Below, one piece after another: positions 41,562 through 61,060 of a stretch of 64,000 nt of DNA; within the stretch, counting starts at the first letter, position 1; each line of letters opens with the position of its first letter. A program made the position numbers and the translations under genes. This stretch comes from Bacilli bacterium (GTDB taxonomy: Bacteria > Bacillota_I > Bacilli_A > RF39 > UBA660), in NCBI GenBank assembly GCA_017462455.1, contig JAFTRC010000056.1, positions 12,078 through 76,077 on the forward strand, read 5' to 3'. Under the pieces are notes generated by a model, which made no database searches, was not told the DNA's origin, and was given only the letters and a program-made list of their open reading frames with translations.

Positions 41562-42923
41562 GAACAGGATAAACGCATGAGTTTTTAAAACTTATGTATT
41601 TTTTAATTGTTTTAATGTTTCTACATCAAGTAACTTAAAAATATTTTCTATTTCGTTTTCAAAAACAAAAGCTATATTTGTTCTAATAATATTTAAGCTT
41701 TTCTTATAATATGTTTGAATAAATTTTAATAATGCCAATGCTATTCTTCTTATTATTCCCAAATTTTTTGCTCCGTTTTTATTAATTGTTTTATTATTAT
41801 CTTCCTTAAAAATTATATCTAATGGTGCATGTAGGTTATTTTCAACTCCCCATTCTGATCTAACACTTCTTGAAAATAACTCTATATCATTTGAGAAACT
41901 AATAATATAATATCTGTCTTCTATTATTATTTTATCTTCTTTTTCAATTGTATTCCTAGCTAATCCGATAGATTTTAGTCCGGGCCACTTTTCTTTTTTA
42001 TTCCTCCATTCAATGTCATTACTCATACAATATTCTCTTGTAATAATTCCATTATGCTCTTTGGAAACAGTCTTTTTATAATTTTCTTTCTTGGCATTTT
42101 CATACAGTTTCTTATCATTAAAATATTCTTTTATTTCTGTATATGTTAATAATTGATTTTCCTTTACTGGCATAACATAATCAGCTTTACCTTTTAATAT
42201 TGCTTTTATTGTATCTACTTGAGTATTTAAGGCATCTGCAGTAACTATACATCCTTCTAATTGCAATTTTTCTAATAGTTTTGGTCCCATTGGGATTTCA
42301 TTACTTTTTTCTGTTATGTAATCTTGAATTAAAGAAAAACCGTAATTGTTTGAGTATACACTCATAGTATTTACAACTGCTTCATCTTTATTAATTCCTG
42401 TACTTCTAACAGAACCTTTTGAGGTTTTCCCATCCATGCTTAGTATATCTCTAGTATTGTTTGCAGTTATTAGATTTATTTTATTTATTAAGTAGTTGAT
42501 TGTATCAGAATATAATGTGTGCGGATTTAAAATAGAAATAACTCTTTGCATAGTATCATGTGAAGGTATTCCATTTGGTAATTCTAAATATTTTCTTAAC
42601 CATTTTTCTTTCTTTTGGGCAAAAGACTCAATTTCAGTCCATTCATCACATTTTGCTAAAACTGCAAATAAAGTAATTAATATAATATCTTCTATTTTAT
42701 ATTTAACATTTGGCTGATATCTAGTATCGTTTTGTTTTTTTACTATAGTTATAATATCTTGTATTCCATCTTTACTTAATTCATCAAAATTTATCTTAAT
42801 CTTATCAAACATTTTACTTAATTCCATTAATTTACTACTTTTTTACTCATACTTTTTATTCCTTTAATACCATTATACACAAAAAAAACACATAAGTTTA
42901 AAAATCATGCGTTTATCCTGCTC
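41562..42923 (-). mobile_element. ISAs1-family insertion sequence with ~28-bp imperfect terminal inverted repeats
   Basis: gaacaggataaacgcatga(g)tttttaaa at 41562-41590 matches the reverse complement of 42895-42923. The 16-bp core caggataaacgcatga is perfect. Confidence 0.85.
41592..42827 (-). CDS. ISAs1-family DDE transposase
   Basis: The N-terminal DTRYQPNVKYKIEDIILITLFAVLAKCDEWTEIESF region is typical of ISAs1 transposases. C-terminal RSEWGVENNLH. Confidence 0.85.
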   Translation of the reverse strand: MELSKMFDKIKINFDELSKDGIQDIITIVKKQNDTRYQPNVKYKIEDIILITLFAVLAKCDEWTEIESFAQKKEKWLRKYLELPNGIPSHDTMQRVISILNPHTLYSDTINYLINKINLITANNTRDILSMDGKTSKGSVRSTGINKDEAVVNTMSVYSNNYGFSLIQDYITEKSNEIPMGPKLLEKLQLEGCIVTADALNTQVDTIKAILKGKADYVMPVKENQLLTYTEIKEYFNDKKLYENAKKENYKKTVSKEHNGIITREYCMSNDIEWRNKKEKWPGLKSIGLARNTIEKEDKIIIEDRYYIISFSNDIELFSRSVRSEWGVENNLHAPLDIIFKEDNNKTINKNGAKNLGIIRRIALALLKFIQTYYKKSLNIIRTNIAFVFENEIENIFKLLDVETLKQLKNT

Positions 42924-48098: not shown

Positions 48099-49223
48099 AT
48101 GAAAAAGAGAAAAGTAAAAAAGAGTGTATATGTTATTTTTTTAATAATTTTGATATTAACAGTAGGAACAGTAACAATATTAAAAAATCAAAGCCAAAAA
48201 AATGTCGAAAAAAGTAAACCAGAAGTAAATGAAAAGACAGATAAAGTGGTAGAAGAAGAACCTAAAAATAAGAAAATGTCTTTAATTGCTGTAGGAGATG
48301 TGCTAATACATGAAAGTGTATATAAGGATGCATATCAAACAGATGGTACTTATAATTTTCACCACATGTTTACTGAAATAGAACCAATAATAAAAAAATA
48401 TGATTTAAAATTCTGTAATCAAGAATCTACAATAGGAGGAAGTACTCTTGGAATAAGTGGGTATCCTAGTTTTAATTCACCTGATGAAATAGGTGATGAA
48501 ATTGTTAATCTTGGGTTTAATTTAATTAGTTTAGCTAACAACCATGTAATGGATAGAGGTGAAAATGCAGTTCTTTATTCCAATAGTTATTGGAAAACTA
48601 AGAATGTAATTACTGCTGGATCCTATTCAAGTATGGAAGAAAGAAATCAAGTTAACGTATATGAACAAAATGGAATAAAATATGCATTTTTAGCTTATAC
48701 AACTAGTTTAAATGGTGGTAATCCTAGTAAAGAATATTATGTTAATATGTATAGTGCTGATAAAGTAAAAACTGATATAGAAGCAGTAAAGAATAGTGTA
48801 GATGTAATAATAGTTTCAATGCACTGGGGAGTAGAATATACAAATACCCCAACAGAAAGTCAACAACAAATAGCTGAATATTTATCTAGCTTAGGAGTTA
48901 ACTTAGTAATTGGACATCATCCACATGTAGTTCAACCTGTAACTTATGTAAATGATACATTGGTAATTTATTCATTAGGAAATTTCATATCTAATCAATT
49001 ATCAATAGGACTTAATCAAGGAATAGGCCTTATGGTAGGAATGGATATAGTAGTAGAAGATGGTAAAGTAACTTTTGAAAATTTATATAAAGAATTAATT
49101 CTTAGCTATGCTTTTCAAAGTACTAATTTTAAAGTAATGCCATTCTCTAAATTAAATAATGATTTATTGAATGATTATGAGAGTGTAAAAACAAAATATA
49201 TGAATATAGTAGAAGGAGTGTAG
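48099..49223 (+). CDS. CapA/PgsA-family metallophosphatase-like membrane-anchored protein
   Basis: MSLIAVGDVLIHESVY, NNHVMDRG, VSMHWGVEYT and GHHPHVVQP. Confidence 0.8.
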   Translation: MKKRKVKKSVYVIFLIILILTVGTVTILKNQSQKNVEKSKPEVNEKTDKVVEEEPKNKKMSLIAVGDVLIHESVYKDAYQTDGTYNFHHMFTEIEPIIKKYDLKFCNQESTIGGSTLGISGYPSFNSPDEIGDEIVNLGFNLISLANNHVMDRGENAVLYSNSYWKTKNVITAGSYSSMEERNQVNVYEQNGIKYAFLAYTTSLNGGNPSKEYYVNMYSADKVKTDIEAVKNSVDVIIVSMHWGVEYTNTPTESQQQIAEYLSSLGVNLVIGHHPHVVQPVTYVNDTLVIYSLGNFISNQLSIGLNQGIGLMVGMDIVVEDGKVTFENLYKELILSYAFQSTNFKVMPFSKLNNDLLNDYESVKTKYMNIVEGV

Positions 49224-49224
49224 T

Positions 49225-50385
49225 ATGAAGAAAAGAAAAGTAAAAAAAGGTAAAGTAGCTTTATTTATATCAATATTTTTAATTATAATAGCTTTATGTG
49301 TAGTAGGAGTGTTATATTTAATTAAATCATCAGATAATTCTAAAAAAACTGTAGAAGAGCCTAAAGAAGAAATAAAGGAAGAAGTAAAAGTAGAAGAACC
49401 AAAAGAAAAAAGAATGTCTTTAGTCGCAGTAGGAGATGCTTTAATACATGCTGCAGTGTACTATGATGCAAGTATAGGTAATGGTAATTATGACTTTAGT
49501 CCTATGTTTACTGAAGTTGCTCCTTTGCTTCAAAATTATGATTTAAAATATTATAATCAAGAAACTATAATAGGAGGTAAAGATTTAGGAGTAAGTCATT
49601 ATCCTAGATTTAATTCTCCTGATGAAATAGCTCTAAATTTAGTTGATATTGGATTTAATTTAGTAAGTTTAGCTAATAATCATACTTTAGATATGAATGA
49701 ACAAGGTGTACTTAACTCAGTTAATTTTTGGAGAAATCAAACTGAAGTAGTAGTAAGCGGTCAATCTGATTCATTTGAAGATAGAAATAATATACAAATA
49801 CATGAACAAAATGGAATAAAGTACGCATTTATTGCTTATACCGACATGACTAATGGTCTAAGCGTTCCAAGCGGTAAAGACTATTTAGTTAATGTTTATA
49901 GTGACGAACAAGCTAAAATAGACATCGAAAGTGTTAGAGATAAAGTAGATGTTGTAATAGTTTCAATGCATTGGGGAGAAGAATATACTCATGAACCAAC
50001 ATATAGACAAAAACAAGAAGCTCAGTATCTATCTAGCTTAGGTGTTGATTTAATAATAGGAGCTCATCCACATGTAATAATGCCTGTAGATTATGTAGGT
50101 GATACATTAGTAATTTATTCATTAGGGAACTTTATATCAGGGCAAAGCCCTTTAGGACTTGCTAAAATAATAGGTCTTATGGTAGGTATGGATATAGTTG
50201 TTAAAGATGATAAAGTAACTTTTGAAAATATCAATTATGATTTATTATATACATACTGTACTAGTAATTATAAAAACTATAAAGTATATCCATTTGATAA
50301 TTTAACTGATGATATTTTATATAACCATGAAGCAATAGAACAAGAATATATGAGCATTGTAACAAGCGAGGTAACTTATGATTGA
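49225..50385 (+). CDS. CapA/PgsA-family protein (tandem paralog)
   Basis: The same motif set (MSLVAVGDALIHAAVY, NNHTLDMN, VSMHWGEEYT, GAHPHVIMP). Confidence 0.8.
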   Translation: MKKRKVKKGKVALFISIFLIIIALCVVGVLYLIKSSDNSKKTVEEPKEEIKEEVKVEEPKEKRMSLVAVGDALIHAAVYYDASIGNGNYDFSPMFTEVAPLLQNYDLKYYNQETIIGGKDLGVSHYPRFNSPDEIALNLVDIGFNLVSLANNHTLDMNEQGVLNSVNFWRNQTEVVVSGQSDSFEDRNNIQIHEQNGIKYAFIAYTDMTNGLSVPSGKDYLVNVYSDEQAKIDIESVRDKVDVVIVSMHWGEEYTHEPTYRQKQEAQYLSSLGVDLIIGAHPHVIMPVDYVGDTLVIYSLGNFISGQSPLGLAKIIGLMVGMDIVVKDDKVTFENINYDLLYTYCTSNYKNYKVYPFDNLTDDILYNHEAIEQEYMSIVTSEVTYD

Positions 50386-50818
50386 GATTAAAAATAAAAA
50401 AGCTAGTTATGACTATTTTATAGAAGAAGAAATAGAATGTGGCATTGTATTGAAAGGTACAGAGATTAAATCTATTAGAGAAGGAAATGCTAATTTAAAA
50501 GATTGTTATGCTATCGTAAGAAATAATGAAGTATTTTTGCTTAATATGTATATTGCTAAATATAATGATGCTAGTATATTTAATCATGATGAAAGACGTA
50601 CTAGAAAACTGTTATTAAATAAAAGAGAAATATTAAAATTAAGAGATAGAGTAGAAATAAGTGGATATACTTTAATACCTATAAAACTTTATTTTAAAGG
50701 AAATAAAGCTAAAATACTTCTTGGAGTAGGTAAAGGTAAGAAAAATTATGATAAAAGAGAATCTATAAAAGAAAAAGATATGAAAAGAGATATAGAAAAA
50801 TTATTAAAAAACAGATAA
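50378..50818 (+). CDS. smpB: SsrA-binding protein
   Basis: NKKASYDYFIEEEIECGIVLKGTEIKSIR and a basic C-terminal tail. Confidence 0.9.
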   Translation: MIEIKNKKASYDYFIEEEIECGIVLKGTEIKSIREGNANLKDCYAIVRNNEVFLLNMYIAKYNDASIFNHDERRTRKLLLNKREILKLRDRVEISGYTLIPIKLYFKGNKAKILLGVGKGKKNYDKRESIKEKDMKRDIEKLLKNR

Positions 50819-50841
50819 AAAGGTTACTACTCGACCTTATC

Positions 50842-51224
50842 ATGGAAAAAATATTAAAAGGATATGTATTTAGACCATATCCAACAGAAAAACTAAAGAT
50901 AAACGAAATGGTACAAAATAAAAATCTTTCTAAAAAAATCTATGATGCATCTTGGTATGAACTAATAAGACAACTAGAATATAAAAGTAAATGTAAAAAC
51001 AAAAAGTTTTACCAAATAGAAACGTATTATCCAAGTAGTCAGATATGTAATAGATGTGGATATCAAGAAAAAAAGATTAAAGATTTAAGTATAAGAGAGT
51101 GGGAATGTCCTAGTTGTACCAATAATAATGAAAGAGATATAATGCTTTTCATTCAAGTATCGACATAATGTTTGAAGGATTGAAAATATATATGAAGAAA
51201 GGCTTAGAACTGCAGTTAAGTTAA
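50842..51224 (+). pseudogene. tnpB: IS200/IS605-family TnpB remnant (internal deletion plus frameshift)
   Basis: The first ~50 nt are nearly identical to the tnpB start at 63861. It then jumps to the C-terminal zinc-finger/RuvC region (SSQICNRCGY...WECPSC...ERD). The frame is lost near 51137-51145, and the shifted frame continues DINAF...IMFEGLKIYMKK to a stop at 51224. Confidence 0.7.
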
Positions 51225-52250
51225 AATTTTGACAATTAATAAATAAGTAGGGTGGCAACCATCCGAAGCTGGTCTATGGAGAAACATGAGTTTCAATCAA
51301 GTAGAAATGTATGACTGTGAAGTCATACCAGTTAAAATTTATTTTGACTTTGTTCTTAATCAATGAGATAATAATATGAAGATAACGTTGTAATTAGTAT
51401 GAGTAGAAGTAAATTTAATAATGACATATATTTAATGTACGAAGCAGAATATAATAAAAATAGCTCATTATATAAATGGAAAAGAAAAAGATGTTATAAA
51501 ATATAAAATTGGAATGAATGTTGATTTATATGTTGAGGAACAGGTTTTTAGCATCTAAATTAAAAGATATATTATCAAGAGAATATTATTCTGATGTAAC
51601 ATACAATAATGATTAAAAAACACTAGTAGTAATACTAGGTAATTATTATTCATTGGGTTATTCCTTTATGATTTTAGTCATGGAATTATAGATATTCCAC
51701 AAGAAACAATCGATAATATTTATGAAGAATTTTCAACTAAATTAAGAGAAACTATAAATAATATAACTACAAAATTATTAGTAAAAACAATTAATGAATT
51801 ATCAAAAGGGCATTTTCCTTCAAAAGAAAATAGTTTGTTAATTTCTAATAATTTGATATTAGGTAATAATTTTACAGTAAAAGAATGCGGTATTAAAAAT
51901 GGTGGGGTAAAATAGTGTTAACATACAAAAATAGTCACTTGACTATTTTTTCTTTGAAAAATGTCAAAATATGTTGACTAGAAATGAATTTTTCTTTATA
52001 ATTTAATTATAGAATAATAGTGGATTAACTATATTTTTTACATACAAGTATGGCGAAAAAATGGTTTTAACAAAATCACCAATAGAGGAAAAAATTAAAT
52101 TATTTAAAAATAATTCAAAAGTAATATTTGATATGAAATATTCTAAAAAATATTTAGGTGAAGAAGTAGAAAAAATTAGATATTAAAATAAAAAAAATAT
52201 GGAGAGATTATCATAATGTAGAAACTTAAATAAAATAGGAGGCAAATATT

Positions 52251-52634
52251 GTGTTAACTTCAGATCAATTAAATAAAATAAAAAAATTACAAGAAAAACA
52301 AAAAAAATATGAACAAGAAATAAACGATAAAAATGAATTAATTAGACGCTATTGTGATAAAACGAGGGAGATAAGAAAACAAATAAATGAATGTTCAATG
52401 AAATTAAGAGAAGCTGAAATTTCATTGAAAGATGGTTTTACTGTAAGTAATAAAAAAGTAGATGATGGAGAACTAGAAAAAATTCGTGATGACTTGGATG
52501 AAATATACAAAAAAATAAGCAAAATAGAGGATAAAGCAATATCTAAATTAGAAGAATCTATAGATTTAATATTCAAAAAAATAGATTCTATAATTCAGGA
52601 AATAAACAATATAATAAAAGAAGGTGTAGGGTAA
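52251..52634 (+). CDS. small all-helical coiled-coil protein (possible secretion partner/targeting factor)
   Basis: 127 aa with GTG start after a GGAGG RBS and heptad-like charged sequence. Stops 5 nt before the hydrolase gene. Confidence 0.5.
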   Translation: MLTSDQLNKIKKLQEKQKKYEQEINDKNELIRRYCDKTREIRKQINECSMKLREAEISLKDGFTVSNKKVDDGELEKIRDDLDEIYKKISKIEDKAISKLEESIDLIFKKIDSIIQEINNIIKEGVG

Positions 52635-52639
52635 AAAAT

Positions 52640-54490
52640 ATGTATTTGAATGAAAAACACTTAAAGCAGACAACGTTCCCATGTTTGAAAGAGGCACAAA
52701 AAATAAGTAAAGAATTAGTATCAAATATTGAAAAAACAAATATTTTTGAAAAAACTGAAAAAAATGATTTAAGCGATAGCTTTTCTAATATATCAACGCG
52801 AATAAAAAATGTATTAGCTAAATTACAAGAAAAAGTAGAAGCAGTAAAAAAAATAGAAGAAAGAGGAAATTCTTCTAAATGGTTAAGTTATTCAACTTTA
52901 GATTTTTTAAACCAACAAAAACAAATGTTGAAAAATAGTAATAATTTACACGAAGAAAATTCAGAAAATAATCCTATAACAGATTATTGTAGCAATACTG
53001 GATGTTTTTCCGATTTTACCGAATATCAACAAATTATGATGACTTATTTTTCAATATTTGAAGAGTGTGATCCAAAGTATTTTGGAAAAACTGTTCAAGA
53101 AATATATGATAGTACGACAGATGAAGTTGAAAAACAAAGAATAAAATCAAGATTGATAGATAATGGTTTTGGGCAAATAACTCTTGTAGAATCTATATCA
53201 GGTGATGATGGCTTTGATGCTATTGTTTTACAGGATAAAAAAGGAGATTATACTATATATTATCCTGGAACAGATGAAGATGAAGATGAAGATATGAAAT
53301 TTGATTTTTCAAAAATCTTTGATTTTTTGATAAATAAAATAAGCGGCAACACAAAATTTCTGACTTCTTTGTTTGGTATTGATATATATGAATTAATGTC
53401 AGAAAGCAATGATATTTATGATTCACAAGTTGATCAAGCCCAAAATCTTGCTTTAAAGTATTTAAAAATAGCTGATAAAAACTCAAAAAAAATTAATTTT
53501 CAAGGTTATTCTTTGGGCGGCGCTTTAGCTGAAGAATCTTATGTATATGCTGTAAAATATATGGAAACTCAAGTAGAGTACTCAGAAATTTTAAAACAAA
53601 TTGATTCAAAATTAGAAACACTTTCTGAAGATACAAAGGAATATGAAAAATTGTTAGAATTAAAAAAAACTATAGAATCTGGTAATTCTTCTGTTGCAAG
53701 TAAGCAATGTCAAGAATTGATTTCAGAACAACTTAATGGAGGATATAGTTATTTTGAGGGAATACTTAATTATATGGGAAATGTAGAATTAGATGAAAAA
53801 GTATGGTGGTCTAGCAAAGACCCTTTGCTAAGTGAATTAGAAAATTATTTAAAAGGCGATGGATTTAATAATACATCACAATATGTAGATAATTTAGGTG
53901 AAATTACTTTATATAATCCATATCATGCTCAATGTGAATCAAGTATTGAAATTTTAACAGAAAGTGGCGATTTAAATCTATATTGTGCAGAAGGTGATAT
54001 GGTTTCTTCAGCATTTAATTATGAAGAATTCTATGATAGTACAACATTTGTTTATACAGATTATGAATCTGCATATGAAGCAAGTAAATCAGAAAAAGTA
54101 AATATTATGACTAAGACGGTTAAGTTTGTTATGCAGGCATTTATTGGCAGTGAATTTCTTTTGGGTTTAGAAACTAATGAACTAACCAATTTATTAACTA
54201 ACTACTCTTTAATTTTTTCTGGGGCGCATAAAATTCATAACTTAGATGCTAATATTGAAAAAGCATTTGACAAAGATGGTTCAGTAAAAACTATAACAGG
54301 AACCGATGTTGTTGATGGAGTAACTTTTTCAGAAATTTCTAAAAGTGTATATGGATTTGACTTAAAAGAAAAATTAAGTGAAACAATTGATATAACAACA
54401 ATCGAATTGGTGGGTGGAGTTTCGGGAGCATATTTTTCTTTACTTATCTATATGAGGAAGCTTTTAATACCATTTTTTAAATCTTTATAA
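52640..54490 (+). CDS. lipase-class alpha/beta hydrolase (DUF2974/Mbeg1-like) with helical N-terminal region, candidate secreted toxin
   Basis: GFDAIVLQDKKGDYTIYYPGTD, then the nucleophile elbow GYSLGGALAE. Downstream are candidate Asp (AEGDMVS) and His (SGAHKIH). Confidence 0.65.
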   Translation: MYLNEKHLKQTTFPCLKEAQKISKELVSNIEKTNIFEKTEKNDLSDSFSNISTRIKNVLAKLQEKVEAVKKIEERGNSSKWLSYSTLDFLNQQKQMLKNSNNLHEENSENNPITDYCSNTGCFSDFTEYQQIMMTYFSIFEECDPKYFGKTVQEIYDSTTDEVEKQRIKSRLIDNGFGQITLVESISGDDGFDAIVLQDKKGDYTIYYPGTDEDEDEDMKFDFSKIFDFLINKISGNTKFLTSLFGIDIYELMSESNDIYDSQVDQAQNLALKYLKIADKNSKKINFQGYSLGGALAEESYVYAVKYMETQVEYSEILKQIDSKLETLSEDTKEYEKLLELKKTIESGNSSVASKQCQELISEQLNGGYSYFEGILNYMGNVELDEKVWWSSKDPLLSELENYLKGDGFNNTSQYVDNLGEITLYNPYHAQCESSIEILTESGDLNLYCAEGDMVSSAFNYEEFYDSTTFVYTDYESAYEASKSEKVNIMTKTVKFVMQAFIGSEFLLGLETNELTNLLTNYSLIFSGAHKIHNLDANIEKAFDKDGSVKTITGTDVVDGVTFSEISKSVYGFDLKEKLSETIDITTIELVGGVSGAYFSLLIYMRKLLIPFFKSL

Positions 54491-54513
54491 AAATATAAAT
54501 ATAGGAGAAAAAT

Positions 54514-54786
54514 ATGAAAGTGAAAAATGAAAAATATTTACCACTAGGAAGTATAGTGTCTTTAAAAAATTCAAAAATAAAATTAATAATAATAGGATAT
54601 TGTAAAAATTTATCTATATATAAAGAAAAAAAATGTGATTATATTGCAACTATATATCCAATAGGGATAATAAATTTAAGGGAAAGTTTGTTTTTTAATC
54701 ATGAACAAATAGATAAAATATTTTATATAGGATATAAAGATGAAACTTTTATAAAAATGAATGAAATGTTGTGGGAATTGGAGTAA
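54514..54786 (+). CDS. DUF4176-like protein
   Basis: KYLPLGSIVSLKNSKIKLIIIGY...DYIATIYPIGI...FFNHEQIDKIFYIGY. Confidence 0.65.
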   Translation: MKVKNEKYLPLGSIVSLKNSKIKLIIIGYCKNLSIYKEKKCDYIATIYPIGIINLRESLFFNHEQIDKIFYIGYKDETFIKMNEMLWELE

Positions 54787-54791
54787 AAAAT

Positions 54792-55361
54792 ATGGAAAAA
54801 AAATTAGAACAAATGAAAAAAAATAGTATTGGAAGTGAAAAGAGAGATAAACTAGTAAGTAATACAAAGAGGATTACTAAAGTAACATTGGGAATGGTAT
54901 TAATGTTAGTAATGAGTTTATCTATGTGTTCTTGTAAAGGAAGATTTCATAATATATCAATAAATTCAGATGGTAAGATAGAAATAGAGGCTACTCAAGA
55001 ATATATAGATTATAATGAAGGTTATGAACTAATTCATTTAAAAATAAAGGATGTAAAAAATATTTTAAAATCTTATAATATTGAATATTATAATGATGAA
55101 ATAGGACCAGTAACAAATGATATAAGTGTATATCAACAAATAAAAGAAATAAAAGAAGAAGATTTGTTTGGATACTATAAGTTATTAGGAAAAGAAGAAA
55201 GTGAAAAAATAATCAAAATCCTTGGATATAAAGATTGGGATGATTATTTAATAAGTCATAGTTATTTAGATGAAAATGGAAATCCTAGCATAGGTATATG
55301 GATTTATGAAATTAGTTTAGAATTAGGTAGACAATATAATGAGGGAGAAAAAACGAGATGA
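54792..55361 (+). CDS. membrane-anchored or lipoprotein-like protein, candidate immunity factor
   Basis: Hydrophobic segment VTLGMVLMLVMSLSMCSCKG with Cys residues at its end (atypical lipobox), then a soluble domain. Confidence 0.45.
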   Translation: MEKKLEQMKKNSIGSEKRDKLVSNTKRITKVTLGMVLMLVMSLSMCSCKGRFHNISINSDGKIEIEATQEYIDYNEGYELIHLKIKDVKNILKSYNIEYYNDEIGPVTNDISVYQQIKEIKEEDLFGYYKLLGKEESEKIIKILGYKDWDDYLISHSYLDENGNPSIGIWIYEISLELGRQYNEGEKTR

Positions 55362-55582
55362 TATTAGATACTGTATTAATAAGTAATGAAGAATATTATG
55401 TAGTGGAAAAATTAAAAGTAAATAGCCAAGAATATTATATATTAGTGAGTGTAGCAGATGAAGAAAATGTTTGTATAAGAAAGAGGATAAATGAATTAGG
55501 TGAAGATTATTTAATTGGATTAGCAGATGAAGAAGAATTTAATTTAGTGATGTATGAATATTTAAAGAAGGTAGAAAAATAA
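55358..55582 (+). CDS. DUF1292-like small protein
   Basis: EEYYVVEKLKVNSQEYYILVS...VCIRKRI...DYLIGLADEEEFNLV pattern. Confidence 0.45.
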   Translation: MILDTVLISNEEYYVVEKLKVNSQEYYILVSVADEENVCIRKRINELGEDYLIGLADEEEFNLVMYEYLKKVEK

Positions 55583-55583
55583 T

Positions 55584-55880
55584 ATGTTAAATAAAATAAT
55601 TTTACCAATTGGTACAATAATAAAATTGATTGAAAGTGATTCTAAAGTAATGATTACTGGATATTTAATGAAAAATAAAAACACCGGATATATATATGAT
55701 TATTGTGGATGTGAATATCCGATTGGAGTAAAAAATAAAGAAAGTAATTTATATTTTGATAAAAGAGATATAAGTAAAATAATAAAAATTGGATATATTA
55801 ATCAAGAATTTTTATTGATAGAAAAAAGACTAAAAAAGGAGAAGAAATATGAATCAAGAAAAATATTTGCCAATAGGTAG
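55584..55880 (+). CDS. DUF4176-like protein
   Basis: LPIGTIIKLIESDSKVMITGY...YDYCGCEYPIGV...YFDKRDISKIIKIGY. Confidence 0.65.
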   Translation: MLNKIILPIGTIIKLIESDSKVMITGYLMKNKNTGYIYDYCGCEYPIGVKNKESNLYFDKRDISKIIKIGYINQEFLLIEKRLKKEKKYESRKIFANR

Positions 55881-56130
55881 TGTTGTATTACTAAAGAATG
55901 CAAAAAAGCAAGTGATGATAACAGGTTTTTTGGCGCGTTCTAAAGAAGAAAATAGTAAAGTATATGATTATATGGGATGCATGTATCCAGAAGGGATTTT
56001 ATCTTCAGAATTTAATTTACTATTTAATCATGATCAAATAGAAAATATATATTATATAGGATATAGTGATAATAATTGGAAAGAGTTAAATGCCAATATT
56101 AAAAAATCTTTTGATGAATCAGAAAAATAA
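55849..56130 (+). CDS. DUF4176-like protein
   Basis: KYLPIGSVVLLKNAKKQVMITGF...YDYMGCMYPEGI...LFNHDQIENIYYIGY. Confidence 0.7.
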   Translation: MNQEKYLPIGSVVLLKNAKKQVMITGFLARSKEENSKVYDYMGCMYPEGILSSEFNLLFNHDQIENIYYIGYSDNNWKELNANIKKSFDESEK

Positions 56131-56893
56131 AAAGGGACTATCGGGAAACTAAATAATTAATTTCTTGATATTTTTTTTGTGTTTAATACTATAAAAAGTT
56201 CTATTTTTCTAGTATCTTCAAGCAAATGTAATGAGGAATTTAGAAAAATAGATAAATTTTTGGAAATTTAAAATGATTCCGGAATAAATGGAATTATTGG
56301 AAAATAAAAAACTAAAGACAGTATATTTCAAAAAGGTCGTAAAGATTATAATTCTTATAATTTGATGTTAACTATAATTTATTGTTTTTCTAATTTTAAA
56401 AGTTCTTTAAGAGAAAATGAAGAACTTTGTATTTATGATATACGTGTAATTTATTTACTGGAACACCGACCACTCAAGCATTCCGTTATACATGACTTTA
56501 TTAATAGATATATAGTTCCATATCAATATAAAATATTTACAATGATAACTCAAACAATTATTAAATAATTAAATTTAGATATATCTAATCAATATCTAGA
56601 TGAAACAAAAATAGAAACATGAGGTAAATATAAACAATTAGAATTAAAATTATATAAATGAAGAATTTATAATATAAGAAAAATAGAATATTAAAGGATG
56701 TTCTGCGTTAGCGTATAATAAAATATAATTTGTAGGTAAAAGTTATTAAAATTTTATAGAAATAATGTTAAGTAGTAAAATATATCAAAAAATTCATAAA
56801 AAAACTGAACTCAAAAGCATAAATACTTGCTTTTTTTTCATATTTAGTATATACTTAAATTGTGATATATGATAACGGAAGGAGATGCTTAAA

Positions 56894-59309: not shown

Positions 59310-59873
59310 ATGAAAATTAGTATTGGAGTATCAAATAGACATGTTCACTTAACGAAAGAACATTTAAATATACTATTTGGAGAAGGCTATGAGTTACAAA
59401 AAAGAAATGATTTAACTCAGCCAGGACAGTATGCTACAAATGAACTTGTAACAATAAAAACAGATAAATCGCAAATAGAAAATGTTAGAGTTTTAGGCCC
59501 TGTAAGAACATATTCTCAAGTGGAGATAAGTAAAACAGATGCTTATAAATTAGGTTTGAATCCACCAGTTAGAAATTCTGGAGAGTTAGAAGGAAGTAGT
59601 CCAATAACTGTAATAGGTCCAAAAGGACAAGTAGATTTATTAGAAGGATGTATAATAGCTTCAAGACATATACATTTGACTAAAGAGCATTTGAAAATAT
59701 ATGAACTTGAAGGAAAAGAAATGGTAAATGTTAAAATAAGTGGGGAAAAAGGCGGAATACTAGCTAATGTATCTTTAAAAGTTAGTGATGAAGCATTTTT
59801 TGAATTACACTTGGATACAGATGATGCGAATGCTCATTTAATTAAAAATGGAGATATAGGAGAGATTGTATGA
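59310..59873 (+). CDS. pduL: phosphate propanoyltransferase PduL
   Basis: Duplicated motif GVSNRHVHLTKEHLNILFG / ASRHIHLTKEHLKIY. Confidence 0.85.
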   Translation: MKISIGVSNRHVHLTKEHLNILFGEGYELQKRNDLTQPGQYATNELVTIKTDKSQIENVRVLGPVRTYSQVEISKTDAYKLGLNPPVRNSGELEGSSPITVIGPKGQVDLLEGCIIASRHIHLTKEHLKIYELEGKEMVNVKISGEKGGILANVSLKVSDEAFFELHLDTDDANAHLIKNGDIGEIV

Positions 59874-61060
59874 AGAAAAAATTAAGTTTGCTTGTTTTTG
59901 CACTAATAATAAATTTTGTTTTAATTGGTAAGGTATTGGGCGCAAAAGAATATACTTGTACTTATAGTGAAACCGGTTATGCTGATATTTATGAAATGAA
60001 TTTTACTTCAACCCAAAAAAAAATTGAAATGAAATCAATAAAGTCCTTTGAAGGTGAATTAGTTGGTTATAAATTTAATGATCAAGGTTTTTTATTAGAT
60101 GAAGATGGATATTGTCCAAGTTCTATAAATGTTGATGAGACTAATAAAATGATTACTTGGATAGCTAGTTATAAAGGTATATATATACTTTTAAAAAAAG
60201 AAACTTTTGATGATGGTAGTTATAATTGTTATTATTCAGATACTCCAAATGAAATTCAAATAAAATATAGATCTAATAAGGATTTGAAAATTAATATGAT
60301 TGGTTGTACTGCAACTTACAGCAGAGATATTAATTGTATGGATTATGAATTTGATGATCAAGGATATGAGGCAAAAAATGCAGATGGAGCATGTCCAAGT
60401 TCCGTAAATATAGATGTTGCTAATAAGACGATTACTTGGATAGATGATGGAGAAGGTAAATATGTAGTTAATGGTAAAGATGGATTAACTGATGTATCTG
60501 ATGTTTGTAATGAATTAATAAAACCAGATTCTTGTGGAACGGCTAAAGGCGTTTCTTGTGTTTGGAATAAAAAAGAAGTAGGCGGAAAAACTTATGAGTA
60601 TTGTAATGTTGATAATTTATTATATGTAAGTTGTGGGGATGCAAGGGATATACCTATACAAGTACCTGCTTTGATAAGTTTTTTAGTTAATTTATTAAAG
60701 ATAGTTACTCCAATTATATTAATATTTATGGGTATAATAACTCTTGTAAAAGCACTTGCAGCTTCAAAAGAAGATGAAATAAAGAAAGCTCAAGGTTCAT
60801 TAGTTAAAAAATTAATAGCTGCTGCTATGGTATTCTTTGTAGTAACTATAGTACAATTTGTTATATCTTTAGTAGCTGATGCAGAATATGAATCAGATAA
60901 TGGTGAAACAGAAAAAGATAATTTCTCTAGTTGTCTAGAATGTTTCTTAACTAATAATTGTGAAAAAAATGCTTATTATAAAACTAATATATCAGGTAAA
61001 GAATATTGTACTGATTTAGGTAGTGGAAATTTTGACTTATGTCCTGGAGAAGACTTATAA
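59870..61060 (+). CDS. helical-hairpin pilin-like protein, member F, with ~230-aa Cys-rich ectodomain containing an internal duplication (orphan copy)
   Basis: Signal peptide, then the core LKIVTPIILIFMGIITLVKALAASKEDEIKKAQGSLVKKLIAAAMVFFVV and tail CLECFLTNNC. Overlaps the pduL stop by 4 nt. Confidence 0.6.
   Translation: MKKKLSLLVFALIINFVLIGKVLGAKEYTCTYSETGYADIYEMNFTSTQKKIEMKSIKSFEGELVGYKFNDQGFLLDEDGYCPSSINVDETNKMITWIASYKGIYILLKKETFDDGSYNCYYSDTPNEIQIKYRSNKDLKINMIGCTATYSRDINCMDYEFDDQGYEAKNADGACPSSVNIDVANKTITWIDDGEGKYVVNGKDGLTDVSDVCNELIKPDSCGTAKGVSCVWNKKEVGGKTYEYCNVDNLLYVSCGDARDIPIQVPALISFLVNLLKIVTPIILIFMGIITLVKALAASKEDEIKKAQGSLVKKLIAAAMVFFVVTIVQFVISLVADAEYESDNGETEKDNFSSCLECFLTNNCEKNAYYKTNISGKEYCTDLGSGNFDLCPGEDL

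Follow-up and report, generated by a model that had tools for sequence, protein, structure and literature searches.

Positions 52251-56130 of the window (the whole 64-kb stretch of DNA that was analysed) are occupied by one tight seven-gene operon on the forward strand (Table 1). A preliminary description had seen here a cassette made up of a helical partner, a hydrolase, three DUF4176 genes, a lipoprotein-like gene and a DUF1292-like gene, and this content is confirmed both by the open reading frames, every one of which is present, and by Pfam matches. The gaps between the seven genes are, in order, 5, 23, 5, -4, 1 and -32 nt, the first of these being the 5 nt already noted between the 127-aa and 616-aa frames. 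Upstream of the operon there is a good match to a sigma-70-like consensus; the promoter region as a whole shows no enrichment when compared with shuffles.

Table 1. Features of the cassette and its flanks, in window coordinates.
Feature	Coordinates	Strand	Basis or remark
Left flank: truncated TnpB/Cas12f-like transposon gene fragment, 108 aa	50842..51168	+	Pfam Cas12f1-like_TNB E = 7.8e-15
YukD/EsaB-like T7SS ubiquitin-like gene remnant	51643..51915	+	open frame; no ATG/GTG/TTG start before 51835
Best match to a sigma-70-like promoter ahead of the operon	51974..52002	+	TTGACT-17-TATAAT, 11/12; consensus match only
127-aa two-helix partner protein, candidate Lap-like targeting factor	52251..52634	+	homology to L012 125-aa protein
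616-aa candidate lipase-class toxin	52640..54490	+	N-terminal hairpin, linker, class-3-lipase-like alpha/beta hydrolase, hydrophobic C-terminal tail
Residues 1-76: two-helix N-terminal 'class A' trafficking domain (putative)	52640..52867	+	AF2 and HMM
Residues 118-595: hydrolase domain	52991..54424	+	pLDDT >90 over most of core
Thr211	53270-53272	+	key residue, hydrolase domain
Ser291	53510-53512	+	GYSLGG at residue 289
Residues 305-417: helical insertion after nucleophile helix	53552..53890	+	alignments with relatives
Asp453	53996-53998	+	AEGDMVS at residue 450
His530	54227-54229	+	SGAHKIH at residue 527
Small DUF4176 protein a, 90 aa, candidate toxin chaperone	54514..54786	+	Pfam PF13780 E = 1.7e-21
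189-aa lipoprotein-like protein, candidate immunity protein	54792..55361	+	homologues downstream of lipase in other loci
74-aa acidic DUF1292-like protein, conserved accessory	55358..55582	+	Pfam PF06949 E = 2.1e-05, 25.7 bits vs cutoff 24
Small DUF4176 protein b, 98 aa	55584..55880	+	Pfam PF13780 E = 6.4e-24
Small DUF4176 protein c, 93 aa	55849..56130	+	Pfam PF13780 E = 4.5e-27
Right flank: DUF772 transposase fragment, 68 aa	56362..56568	+	Pfam DUF772 E = 0.0048, below cutoff; weak

The lipase-class core and the Ser, Asp and His motifs previously quoted for the 616-aa protein are all present, and the triad is conserved across a hydrolase family with 83 representatives in a set of 1.84 billion proteins (Ser at 73 of 75 non-gap positions, Asp at 72 of 76, His at 72 of 73). 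Also conserved across the 83 is a Thr211/Asp218 motif (YYPGT...D), which we take to be the equivalent of the RGT...D motif of class 3 lipases. Foldseek returns class 3 fungal lipases as best matches, those of Rhizomucor and Thermomyces at the top (probability 0.8-0.99 but E = 0.04-0.3), with an Enterobacter cloacae T6SS lipase effector among the weaker ones. At the level of sequence, 11 family members match Lipase_3 and 10 match Mbeg1-like; the hydrolase of the cassette itself reaches no Pfam threshold (15.9 bits for Mbeg1-like, where the cutoff is 21.1) and has no sequence match in PDB or NCBIfam. The family is rare and, in the literature searched, undescribed. Among ten aligned relatives, P0005 alone has a shorter version of the insertion that follows the nucleophile helix and the other eight lack it; AF2 predicts its helices with low confidence over residues 365-414. 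Dockerin, LysM or Sec signal peptides occur in some members of the family, and the hydrolase domain is accordingly not bound to a single route of export.

The N-terminus requires a revision: where a helical region of about 170 aa had been proposed, we find a targeting module of approximately residues 1-76 plus a linker, with the conserved hydrolase domain beginning around residue 118 (FSDFTEYQ). AF2 predicts helices at residues 5-32 and 42-75, followed by a low-confidence linker up to about residue 117. An HMM made from the N-termini of five other class A proteins gives residues 1-76 a score of 27.6 bits, compared with 12.8 for the best of 2000 composition-matched shuffles. The same class A domain heads P0077, a non-lipase, glycine-rich membrane toxin with a glycine zipper, and sharing of an N-terminal domain between different types of toxin is a hallmark of polymorphic toxins. 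Class A N-termini and the class B N-termini that head lipases directly after EssC detect each other. As noted earlier, there is no canonical LXG N-terminus: residues 1-76 match neither LXG nor WXG100, none of the toxins of this family matches the Pfam or NCBIfam LXG models, and the domain profile finds only generic coiled coils among PDB sequences.

The 127-aa partner is homologous to a 125-aa protein encoded directly upstream of P0077 in locus L012 (tblastn E = 5.7e-05; E = 1.5e-04 in a second comparison), and a central L-x-G-G-Y/F turn is common to the aligned partner family. Pfam and NCBIfam yield no specific family for the partner beyond coiled-coil noise, comparison of the partner family with WXG100 reveals no detectable relation (hhalign 2.4%), and its profile again retrieves only generic coiled coils from PDB sequences.

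All three DUF4176 proteins match PF13780 far above the curated cutoff and share 38-44% mutual identity, which bears out their earlier description as paralogues. Protein a is 60% identical to its same-position orthologue in L019, protein b 57% identical to the same-position DUF4176 gene product of L010, and protein c 54-71% identical to DUF4176 proteins of the T7SS loci L012, L013, L015, L016 and L019. DUF4176 proteins are T7SSb toxin chaperones, the small ones adjoining immunity genes (PMC12478183). The gene between a and the DUF1292-like frame could start at 54771 or 54792; gene callers on the source contig choose the latter, which gives 189 aa. Its hydrophobic segment does end in cysteine, as had been reported (Cys-Ser-Cys, in an atypical lipobox, LSMCSC), and its homologues carry the canonical lipoboxes LTAC, LVGC and LSGC. 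No Pfam family matches this lipoprotein-like protein, no known immunity family matches its lipoprotein family, and its ectodomain of about 130 aa has no similarity to solved structures. The DUF1292-like frame, likewise present as described and just over the Pfam cutoff, shares its first 4 nt with the end of the lipoprotein gene.

Comparison of loci indicates which of these genes belong together. A lipase followed by a homologous lipoprotein is found in eight of 11 distinct loci (the window, L005, L010, L011, L013, L015, L016 and L019), and in all six that extend far enough (the window, L010, L013, L015, L016 and L019) a DUF1292-like gene comes after the lipoprotein. Judged by this gene order, the DUF1292-like gene is part of the conserved core of the module and no incidental neighbour. 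L019 has the same order as the window (lipase, DUF4176, lipoprotein, DUF1292-like), whereas L010 places DUF4176 after the DUF1292-like gene. In L015 and L016 the lipase, lipoprotein and DUF1292-like genes directly follow EssC (TIGR03928, E = 2e-128), and in L013 the same three are followed by WXG100 and DUF4176 genes. L012 runs EssC, YukD, WXG100, a 96-aa protein, the 125-aa protein and P0077, so that both the hairpin domain (there fused to P0077) and the partner of our cassette recur in it; the window lacks counterparts of the WXG100 and 96-aa YxxxE genes found ahead of the partner gene in L012 and L013. With conserved partners, EssC, WXG100 and DUF4176 neighbours and an N-terminal domain common to P0077, the T7SS-linked polymorphic-toxin reading put forward at the outset is supported.

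A trace of such a locus may survive 335 nt upstream of the operon, where an open frame resembles the 83-aa YukD-like protein of L012 (61.7% identity over 47 aa, tblastn E = 1e-14, extending to 44.6% over 74 aa at 51685-51903). That L012 protein itself lies just under the Pfam YukD cutoff (E = 2.8e-05, 25.2 bits against 27 bits; NCBIfam YukD E = 0.002), and the remnant has no Pfam match. The decayed gene just upstream points to derivation of the cassette from a T7SS locus. In agreement with the preliminary description, tblastn finds no EssC, EsaA, EssB or WXG100 gene in the window, and no T7SS core gene, EssC and EsxA included, is found in the window plus the next 10 kb (about 74 kb of contig). 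The cassette is therefore an orphan and its export here putative: with the secretion genes that probably once preceded it gone, export would need a T7SS encoded elsewhere in the genome.

We suggest, with a probability of about 0.65, that the cassette is an antibacterial toxin-immunity module of the type VIIb-secretion style, separated from its secretion machine. The most likely products of the operon are a lipase toxin that attacks membranes and is fired at rivals via type VII, a protective lipoprotein and helpers; secretion, toxicity and immunity are what we infer from sequence. The 616-aa protein would carry a short two-helix trafficking domain at its N-terminus which, together with the 127-aa partner, would form the export signal for an EssC-type ATPase, while the small DUF4176 proteins might hold hydrophobic or disordered toxin segments in the producer cytoplasm. 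Once outside, the Ser291/Asp453/His530 domain would hydrolyse the membrane lipids of nearby Gram-positive cells, acting on their outer face. The producer might protect itself through the lipoprotein, tethered on the outer face of its own membrane, where it would bind and block the lipase. The acidic DUF1292-like protein would be a conserved third partner, maybe a cytoplasmic inhibitor or adaptor. In this genome the preceding secretion genes would have been lost, leaving the YukD-like remnant alone.

The same ancestry could also have ended differently: deletion of EssC and EsxA may have stranded an unexportable toxin operon, which may be kept just for its immunity gene, like orphan immunity islands, or be decaying. 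A start-less YukD-like gene with no EssC remnant, transposon gene fragments on either side, the loss of the WXG100 and 96-aa genes and the missing core all speak for such a relic. However, all seven frames are intact and tightly coupled, each has a Shine-Dalgarno-like motif, and they lie downstream of the 11/12 promoter match; an identical 616-aa protein occurs on eight contigs and in several samples. A comparable orphan, again with a DUF4176 gene, is the relative P0017, and T7SS toxins like TslA are commonly encoded far from the core locus (PMC10730906). We consider a stranded relic unlikely.

Two further scenarios were considered. Instead of an antibacterial toxin, the hydrolase might be a lipase, secreted or on the surface, that serves nutrition or the use of host lipids, and the lipoprotein its specific foldase or anchor, like Pseudomonas Lif, in place of an immunity protein. 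The dockerin, LysM and Sec signal peptides in the family are typical of extracellular enzymes, the lipoprotein family matches none of the known immunity families, and P0008 and P0015, which have the same N-terminal domain, are surrounded by housekeeping genes and have neither a lipoprotein nor a DUF4176 gene beside them. Yet that N-terminal domain also heads a glycine-zipper membrane toxin, and lipase relatives lie next to EssC, in arrays where toxins are accompanied by helical partners and DUF4176 genes. Lif foldases, moreover, are larger helical proteins, and the small ectodomain resembles no solved structure; we therefore regard this scenario as improbable. The other, raised in the preliminary description, is export by the upstream conjugative type IV/Tad-like machinery, a cluster at about 14.4-41.5 kb (with a T2SSE-type ATPase, VirB4-like ATPase, TrbL, M23 peptidase and VirD4 coupling protein at about 20-39.5 kb) that ends about 11 kb upstream of the cassette. 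Co-occurrence in the window is the sole argument for it, whereas the stretch between contains housekeeping genes, with a transposase, RNase R, two PGA_cap genes and smpB separating the two, no type IV gene lies near the lipase in any of ten related loci with called or inspected genes, and the specific neighbours are all of T7SS type. We find this idea highly improbable.

How does the type VIIb-style module compare with known systems? TslA and TslM of Staphylococcus aureus are T7SS lipases that act from outside the cell, TslA being neutralised by a lipoprotein (PMC10730906, PMC13560087). The TslA/TilA/TlaA1-TlaA2 system (Tsl1, a T7SSb phospholipase; PMC10730906) shares with our cassette a GxSxG Ser-Asp-His lipase, small helical partners alongside, an extracytoplasmic lipoprotein as (here candidate) immunity protein, frequent location away from the T7SS core and membership of polymorphic families. 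It differs in that TslA has an N-terminal lipase and a C-terminal LXG-like targeting domain, the reverse of our N-terminal helical domain and C-terminal lipase; in that TilA is a DUF576 protein, whereas our lipoprotein matches no family; in having two partners rather than one; and in that DUF4176 and DUF1292-like genes are not described for the TslA cassette in the text consulted. The phospholipase TslM (Tsl2, with TlaM and TilM) needs a single helical partner, and our single 127-aa gene might suggest likewise, but the orientation of TslM is again reversed, and a DUF1433 membrane protein provides its immunity (PMC13560087). According to a 2026 paper, lipases with an N-terminal LXG domain are not known. 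The putative export tag here is at the opposite end from that of both type VII lipase toxin families described in the literature searched, and set against TslM (PMC13560087) our family is a candidate for an N-terminal-targeted lipase arrangement.

LXG polymorphic toxins such as TelA and TelB of Streptococcus intermedius, with their Lap targeting factors and their DUF4176 (Ltc) chaperones, resemble the cassette in combining an N-terminal helical trafficking domain with different toxin domains, in having small helical genes directly upstream, DUF4176 genes and downstream immunity genes, and in the EssC/WXG100 linkage of related loci (PMC12478183, PMC10801868). Here, in contrast, the N-terminal domain is only about 76 residues long and is not recognised by the LXG models of Pfam and NCBIfam, the DUF4176 genes belong to the small class and the toxin domain is a lipase. 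In predicted fold and nucleophile elbow our protein agrees with class 3 (fungal-type) lipases and cutinases, while large helical insertions and a different export machinery set it apart from these and from T6SS Tle effectors. The proposed logic of a lipase acting from outside and an extracytoplasmic lipoprotein that inhibits it is nonetheless that of Tle lipases with periplasmic Tli immunity lipoproteins (cited in PMC10730906).

The seven ORFs of the cassette follow one another with intergenic gaps of 5, 23, 5, -4, 1 and -32 nt in order, each start carries a Shine-Dalgarno-like motif, and the promoter-like site TTGACT-17-TATAAT, the best in the region, sits 5' of the first gene. Pfam returned sub-threshold Mbeg1-like and DUF676 matches and nothing else for the 616-aa protein and no specific family for the helical partner or the lipoprotein-like gene, and an NCBIfam search of the cassette proteins added nothing to this. 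Given the ORF layout and the Pfam results, the preliminary description of the cassette as a run of seven genes with three DUF4176-like members and a DUF1292-like one is accurate. The interval separating the promoter-like site from the partner gene contains a 41-aa ORF that begins MVLTKSPIEEKIKLF, similar to the N-termini of the window's partner and of a 125-aa partner protein from a related locus; this ORF may be a duplicated 5' fragment.

Features of the window discussed in the text
Feature	Position	Strand	Basis or context
SpaA-fold surface protein	14386	+	conjugative cluster
T2SSE/Tad-type ATPase	20401	+	conjugative cluster
TrbL/VirB6-like protein	28949	+	conjugative cluster
VirB4/TraG-like ATPase	32170	+	conjugative cluster
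M23 peptidase	33976	+	conjugative cluster
VirD4 coupling protein	37420	+	conjugative cluster
DDE transposase	41592-42827	opposite strand	after conjugative cluster
Two tandem paralogous PGA_cap (CapA-like) genes	48099-50385		just upstream of smpB
TnpB fragment	50842-51168		beside smpB
YukD-like frame, open, without start codon	51643-51915		
Promoter-like site	51974-52002		
41-aa ORF	52061-52186		
Helical protein (partner), 127 aa	52251-52634	same strand as other six ORFs	ORF listing
Large protein (lipase), 616 aa	52640-54490	same strand as other six ORFs	ORF listing
DUF4176 protein, 90 aa	54514-54786	same strand as other six ORFs	Pfam
189/196-aa protein, hydrophobic N-terminal segment ending in Cys (lipoprotein-like)	54792 or 54771 to 55361	same strand	ORF listing
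DUF1292-like protein, 74 aa	55358-55582	same strand as other six ORFs	Pfam
Two further DUF4176 proteins, 98 and 93 aa	55584-55880, 55849-56130	same strand	Pfam
DUF772 fragment, weak	56362-56568		ahead of spoVG
396-aa protein	59870-61060		no Pfam match

The large protein belongs to a small family. A word-indexed protein search returned three proteins, two of them relatives, and gave nothing new when redone with a 41-sequence profile and then with an N-terminal profile; its prefilter seems to be saturated by low-complexity sequences of AT-rich genomes. When 1.84 billion cluster representatives were searched exhaustively with an HMM, 83 members were recovered at E <= 0.001, so the family is rare, and scans of GTDB genomes and JGI metagenomes contributed one locus each. 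At E <= 0.01, Lipase_3 matches 11 of these members and Mbeg1-like 10; cutinase (five members), dockerin (three) and LysM (one) matches also occur, and one member has a Sec-like signal peptide. The window protein itself scores below the curated Pfam cutoff for Mbeg1-like (15.9 versus 21.1 bits) and has no Lipase_3 match. Its catalytic motifs, GYSLGG (Ser291), AEGDMVS (Asp453) and GAHKIH (His530), comprise a GxSxG elbow and follow the canonical Ser-Asp-His order, and across the 83 representatives the three residues are conserved at 73/75, 72/76 and 72/73 non-gap positions, respectively. Thr211 and Asp218, in the motif YYPGTD...D, are conserved to the same degree as the triad; we take this motif to be the counterpart of the RGT...D motif of class 3 lipases.

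An AlphaFold2 model built with the 41-sequence alignment has a mean pLDDT of 77, and most positions within 118-330 and 420-580 exceed 90. The leading Foldseek matches in the PDB are Rhizomucor miehei lipase, feruloyl esterase A and Thermomyces lanuginosus lipase, with probabilities of 0.8-0.99, weak E values of 0.04-0.3 and target TM-scores of 0.35-0.46 for a full-length query that includes insertions. A T6SS lipase effector appears further down the list. Queried with the lipase or a profile of it, PDB sequences gave no match, or only cutinase at E = 0.5, a sub-significant alignment in which the GYSxG and GD-x-V motifs both line up. A helical insertion of 113 residues (305-417) is present in the window protein; in an alignment of ten relatives, P0005 alone has a shorter insert and the other eight have none.

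The hydrolase domain (118-595) is preceded by a helical hairpin (1-76) and followed by only about 20 hydrophobic residues (GAYFSLLIYMRKLLIPFFKSL). Neither Pfam PF04740 nor the NCBIfam LXG models match the window protein at E <= 1, none of the 83 family members has an LXG match at E <= 0.01, and Pfam and NCBIfam likewise find no LXG domain in P0077, P0021, P0002, P0055 or the toxins of locus L015. By model-based tests the cassette's lipase falls outside the LXG family. Searches for an LXG, WXG100 or Lap identity of the N-terminal domain and the partner with Pfam, NCBIfam, PDB profiles and hhalign gave only coiled-coil noise.

The hairpin is a recurrent domain. With an HMM made from five other N-termini of the same type (class A) and no further sequences, residues 1-100 of the window protein reach 27.6 bits, and the best of 2000 composition-matched shuffles 12.8 bits. 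The same domain of about 100 residues heads P0077, a toxin of locus L012 in which it continues into a Gly/Ala-rich hydrophobic region with no lipase; we take that region to be a candidate membrane-active toxin domain. P0077 is 587 aa long (L012 3572-5335), and we suggest its long Gly/Ala-rich stretches as a candidate glycine-zipper, pore-forming toxin. Class B, another type of N-terminus, is found on the EssC-adjacent lipases, an NlpC/P60 toxin and toxins of 880-911 aa at loci L015 and L016. The two classes align in register (hhalign probability 66%, E = 5.6e-05), and the HMM of each detects members of the other. Each combines one putative helical trafficking domain with unrelated C-terminal toxin domains. 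A third type, class C, consists of a short Asn/Lys-rich start, such as MSVNFDN, MNLNFNS or MAVNFINNKNSINIK, for which no hairpin is predicted. Many lipases of the family carry it (P0003, P0004, P0005, P0007, P0018 and the L010 lipase), as does an unrelated 848-aa toxin (L019 52-2598), and it may be another trafficking tag.

The partner, a two-helix protein, is homologous to the 125-aa protein encoded directly before P0077 (tblastn E = 5.7e-05). Pfam, hhalign and PDB profile searches detect no relation to WXG100 or known Lap families, its weak Pfam matches to YwqH-like (E = 0.21) and WXG100 (E = 0.16) not being significant. The window's cassette lacks the second partner of loci L012 and L013, a 96-aa protein whose C-terminus reads YEKLE.

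We compared the neighbourhoods of related genes, which we obtained by exact-protein look-up and collection scans and ordered by tblastn with the window proteins and inspection of ORFs.

Gene orders at the loci compared with the cassette
Locus	Gene order
L010 (uncultured Bacillales MAG)	lipase, lipoprotein, DUF1292-like, DUF4176
L019	toxin, 185-aa, DUF4176, lipase, DUF4176, lipoprotein, DUF1292-like
L015, L016	EssC (C-terminal part, contig-truncated), lipase, lipoprotein, DUF1292-like
L013	lipase, lipoprotein, DUF1292-like, WXG100, 96-aa, 120-aa, DUF4176
L005, L011	lipase, lipoprotein, then contig end
L017/L018	lipase, DUF4176, 113-aa
L007, L009	lipase alone amid unrelated genes
L012	EssC C-terminus (FtsK_SpoIIIE), YukD-like, WXG100, 96-aa ESAT-6-like ending YEKLE, 125-aa helical, P0077, 128-aa, large DUF4176

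Counting the window, a lipoprotein gene follows the lipase at 8 of 11 distinct loci, and a DUF1292-like gene follows the lipoprotein at all six where the sequence extends far enough. From the lipase onwards L019 has the window's order, its three downstream genes being 60%, 38% and 62% identical to those of the window. At L015 and L016 the DUF1292-like gene is followed by WXG-like proteins, helical proteins of 120-160 aa, DUF4176 and more toxins. The large DUF4176 protein of L012, encoded after P0077 and the 128-aa protein, has 256 aa and a Pro/Val-rich tail. Two class A lipases, P0008 (L007 10001-11908) and P0015 (L009), have no lipoprotein, DUF1292-like or DUF4176 neighbour, and one of them has topoisomerase IV/gyrase-type genes on one side and uvrC on the other; the immunity genes of this clade may be located elsewhere, or the clade may have a different role.

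The lipoprotein-like product of the window is the candidate immunity protein. Its hydrophobic segment ends ...LMLVMSLSMCSCKG, an atypical lipobox at positions -1 and -3, and the aligned homologues have the canonical lipoboxes LTAC, LVGC and LSGC. NCBIfam offers a weak match to a mycoplasma lipoprotein family (E = 6.6e-05, far under cutoff). The N-region of the family is unusually long, with about 35 residues ahead of the hydrophobic segment (window 54792-54900; homologues at L010, L013 and L015), and the KNS(I/V)G-x-(E/D)K motif conserved within it is, on sequence, loosely reminiscent of specialised Gram-positive signal-peptide motifs. The 74-aa protein passes the DUF1292 model (PF06949) by a narrow margin (E = 2.1e-05, 25.7 bits against a curated cutoff of 24), and its homologues at L013 and L015 fall under it (22.6 and 17.5 bits). 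Because the DUF1292-like gene is strictly linked and translationally coupled to the lipoprotein gene, we suggest that its product is a third functional partner. The three DUF4176 proteins match PF13780 at 76.5, 84.3 and 94.3 bits (cutoff 25; E = 1.7e-21 to 4.5e-27); with these scores, lengths within 70-130 aa and genes that flank the DUF1292-like gene and the candidate immunity gene, they belong to the small subclass as size classes and gene contexts are laid out in PMC12478183.

How might such a toxin be exported? One route raised in the preliminary description is the type IV/Tad machinery upstream, and the window does contain, at 14386-41559 (+), a long run of genes on one strand of the kind typically seen in conjugative elements of Gram-positive bacteria. 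That cluster is set apart from the cassette by a transposase, RNase R, two PGA_cap genes and smpB, and no type IV genes lie near the lipase at related loci with called or inspected genes, both of which argue against this route. Type VII secretion, the other route proposed there, is supported by the related loci, with their lipoprotein, DUF1292-like and DUF4176 neighbours, their shared N-terminal domain and their adjacency to EssC. The truncated gene before the L015 lipase is EssC (TIGR03928, E = 2e-128, model positions 610-1294 of 1296), its L016 counterpart is 51% identical, and linkage to EssC or WXG100 is seen at L012, L013, L015 and L016. The window itself contains no EssC or WXG100 (EsxA) gene, nor do the next 10 kb downstream, which hold housekeeping genes only and no T7SS core genes. 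Upstream of the cassette, 74 residues encoded at 51685-51903 are 44.6% identical to the YukD-like protein of L012; EssC or WXG100 remnants above noise were not found in 51100-52300. From the YukD-like remnant and the comparative loci we therefore conclude that the cassette was once the substrate end of a T7SS locus, from which the EssC, WXG100 and 96-aa genes are missing. The window's copy is an orphan, and possibly a stranded one, whose continued export would depend on a T7SS elsewhere in the genome.

The cassette is flanked by the TnpB and DUF772 fragments, and a search of its flanks for the repeats, direct or inverted, of a mobile island yielded nothing convincing. We rejected integration at a tmRNA site downstream of smpB: ARAGORN and Rfam found no tmRNA gene anywhere in the window, and no RNA family besides one tRNA-Leu. 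PADLOC returned coiled-coil noise only for anti-phage defence, and PHROGs, searched for a phage origin, matched the DUF4176 genes alone, to a family of unknown function. The TnpB/Cas12f-like fragment directly after smpB (window 50378-51300) is a C-terminal piece of 108 aa, and an intact IS605 OrfB copy lies just past the window end (10613-11764 of contig sequence L020). The PGA_cap products, of 374 and 386 aa, have N-terminal membrane anchors. In the 396-aa protein a signal peptide is followed by two internal Cys-rich repeats and, towards the C-terminus, transmembrane segments; its gene is flanked by one for a PduL-type phosphotransacylase and by two peptidase U32 genes.

The evidence supports the view that the cassette would act as a polymorphic toxin-immunity module of the T7SSb kind, with function inferred throughout, by analogy with LXG/Lap systems (PMC10801868), the DUF4176 Ltc chaperones (PMC12478183), TslA and TslM (PMC10730906, PMC13560087). 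Together, hairpin and partner would make up the signal that directs the toxin to an EssC-type machine for export. The small DUF4176 proteins, speculated to bind membrane-inserting helices (PMC12478183), could shield hydrophobic or disordered toxin segments, candidates being residues 77-117, residues 365-414 and the C-terminal tail, all of low AlphaFold2 confidence. Once outside, the lipase would attack target membranes as TslA does, for which PMC10730906 shows action from outside the cell, and the lipoprotein would neutralise it on the producer's surface.

TslA and TslM carry an N-terminal lipase and a C-terminal LXG-like targeting domain, the opposite of the order seen here, and the immunity proteins of the two systems are a DUF576 lipoprotein or a DUF1433 membrane protein, whereas the window lipoprotein belongs to no Pfam family. 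Because domain order and immunity families both differ, the window lipase is, as judged from its sequence, not of TslA or TslM type. These two are the T7SS lipase toxin families in the literature we searched, and both have the export domain at the C-terminus. PMC13560087, the most recent paper, states that lipases bearing an LXG domain at the N-terminus are not known, and its authors ask whether lipases need to be fused N-terminal to the targeting sequence; we found no counter-example in the literature searched. The present family, with its lipase behind a trafficking hairpin and, at two loci, directly after EssC, is a candidate counter-example, and a concrete one on which the question of N-terminal fusion can be tested. 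We tentatively propose, at somewhat less than even odds, that these are the first forward-arranged T7-secreted lipase toxins, with a short non-LXG hairpin at the N-terminus, one helical partner, a new lipoprotein immunity family and an obligatory DUF1292-like component, which might serve as an anti-lipase in the cytoplasm, for instance, or as an adaptor for export. If so, lipases are not restricted to the reverse arrangement of TslA and TslM, with its C-terminal signal, and the housekeeping-type DUF1292 fold gains a function in toxin systems. T7SSb systems shape how Gram-positive bacteria compete, and to their parts the family would add three new ones: an immunity-type lipoprotein family, a conserved trio of lipase, lipoprotein and DUF1292-like protein, and an N-terminal domain; since current LXG models miss this domain, T7SS toxins are probably under-annotated in low-GC uncultured Bacillota.
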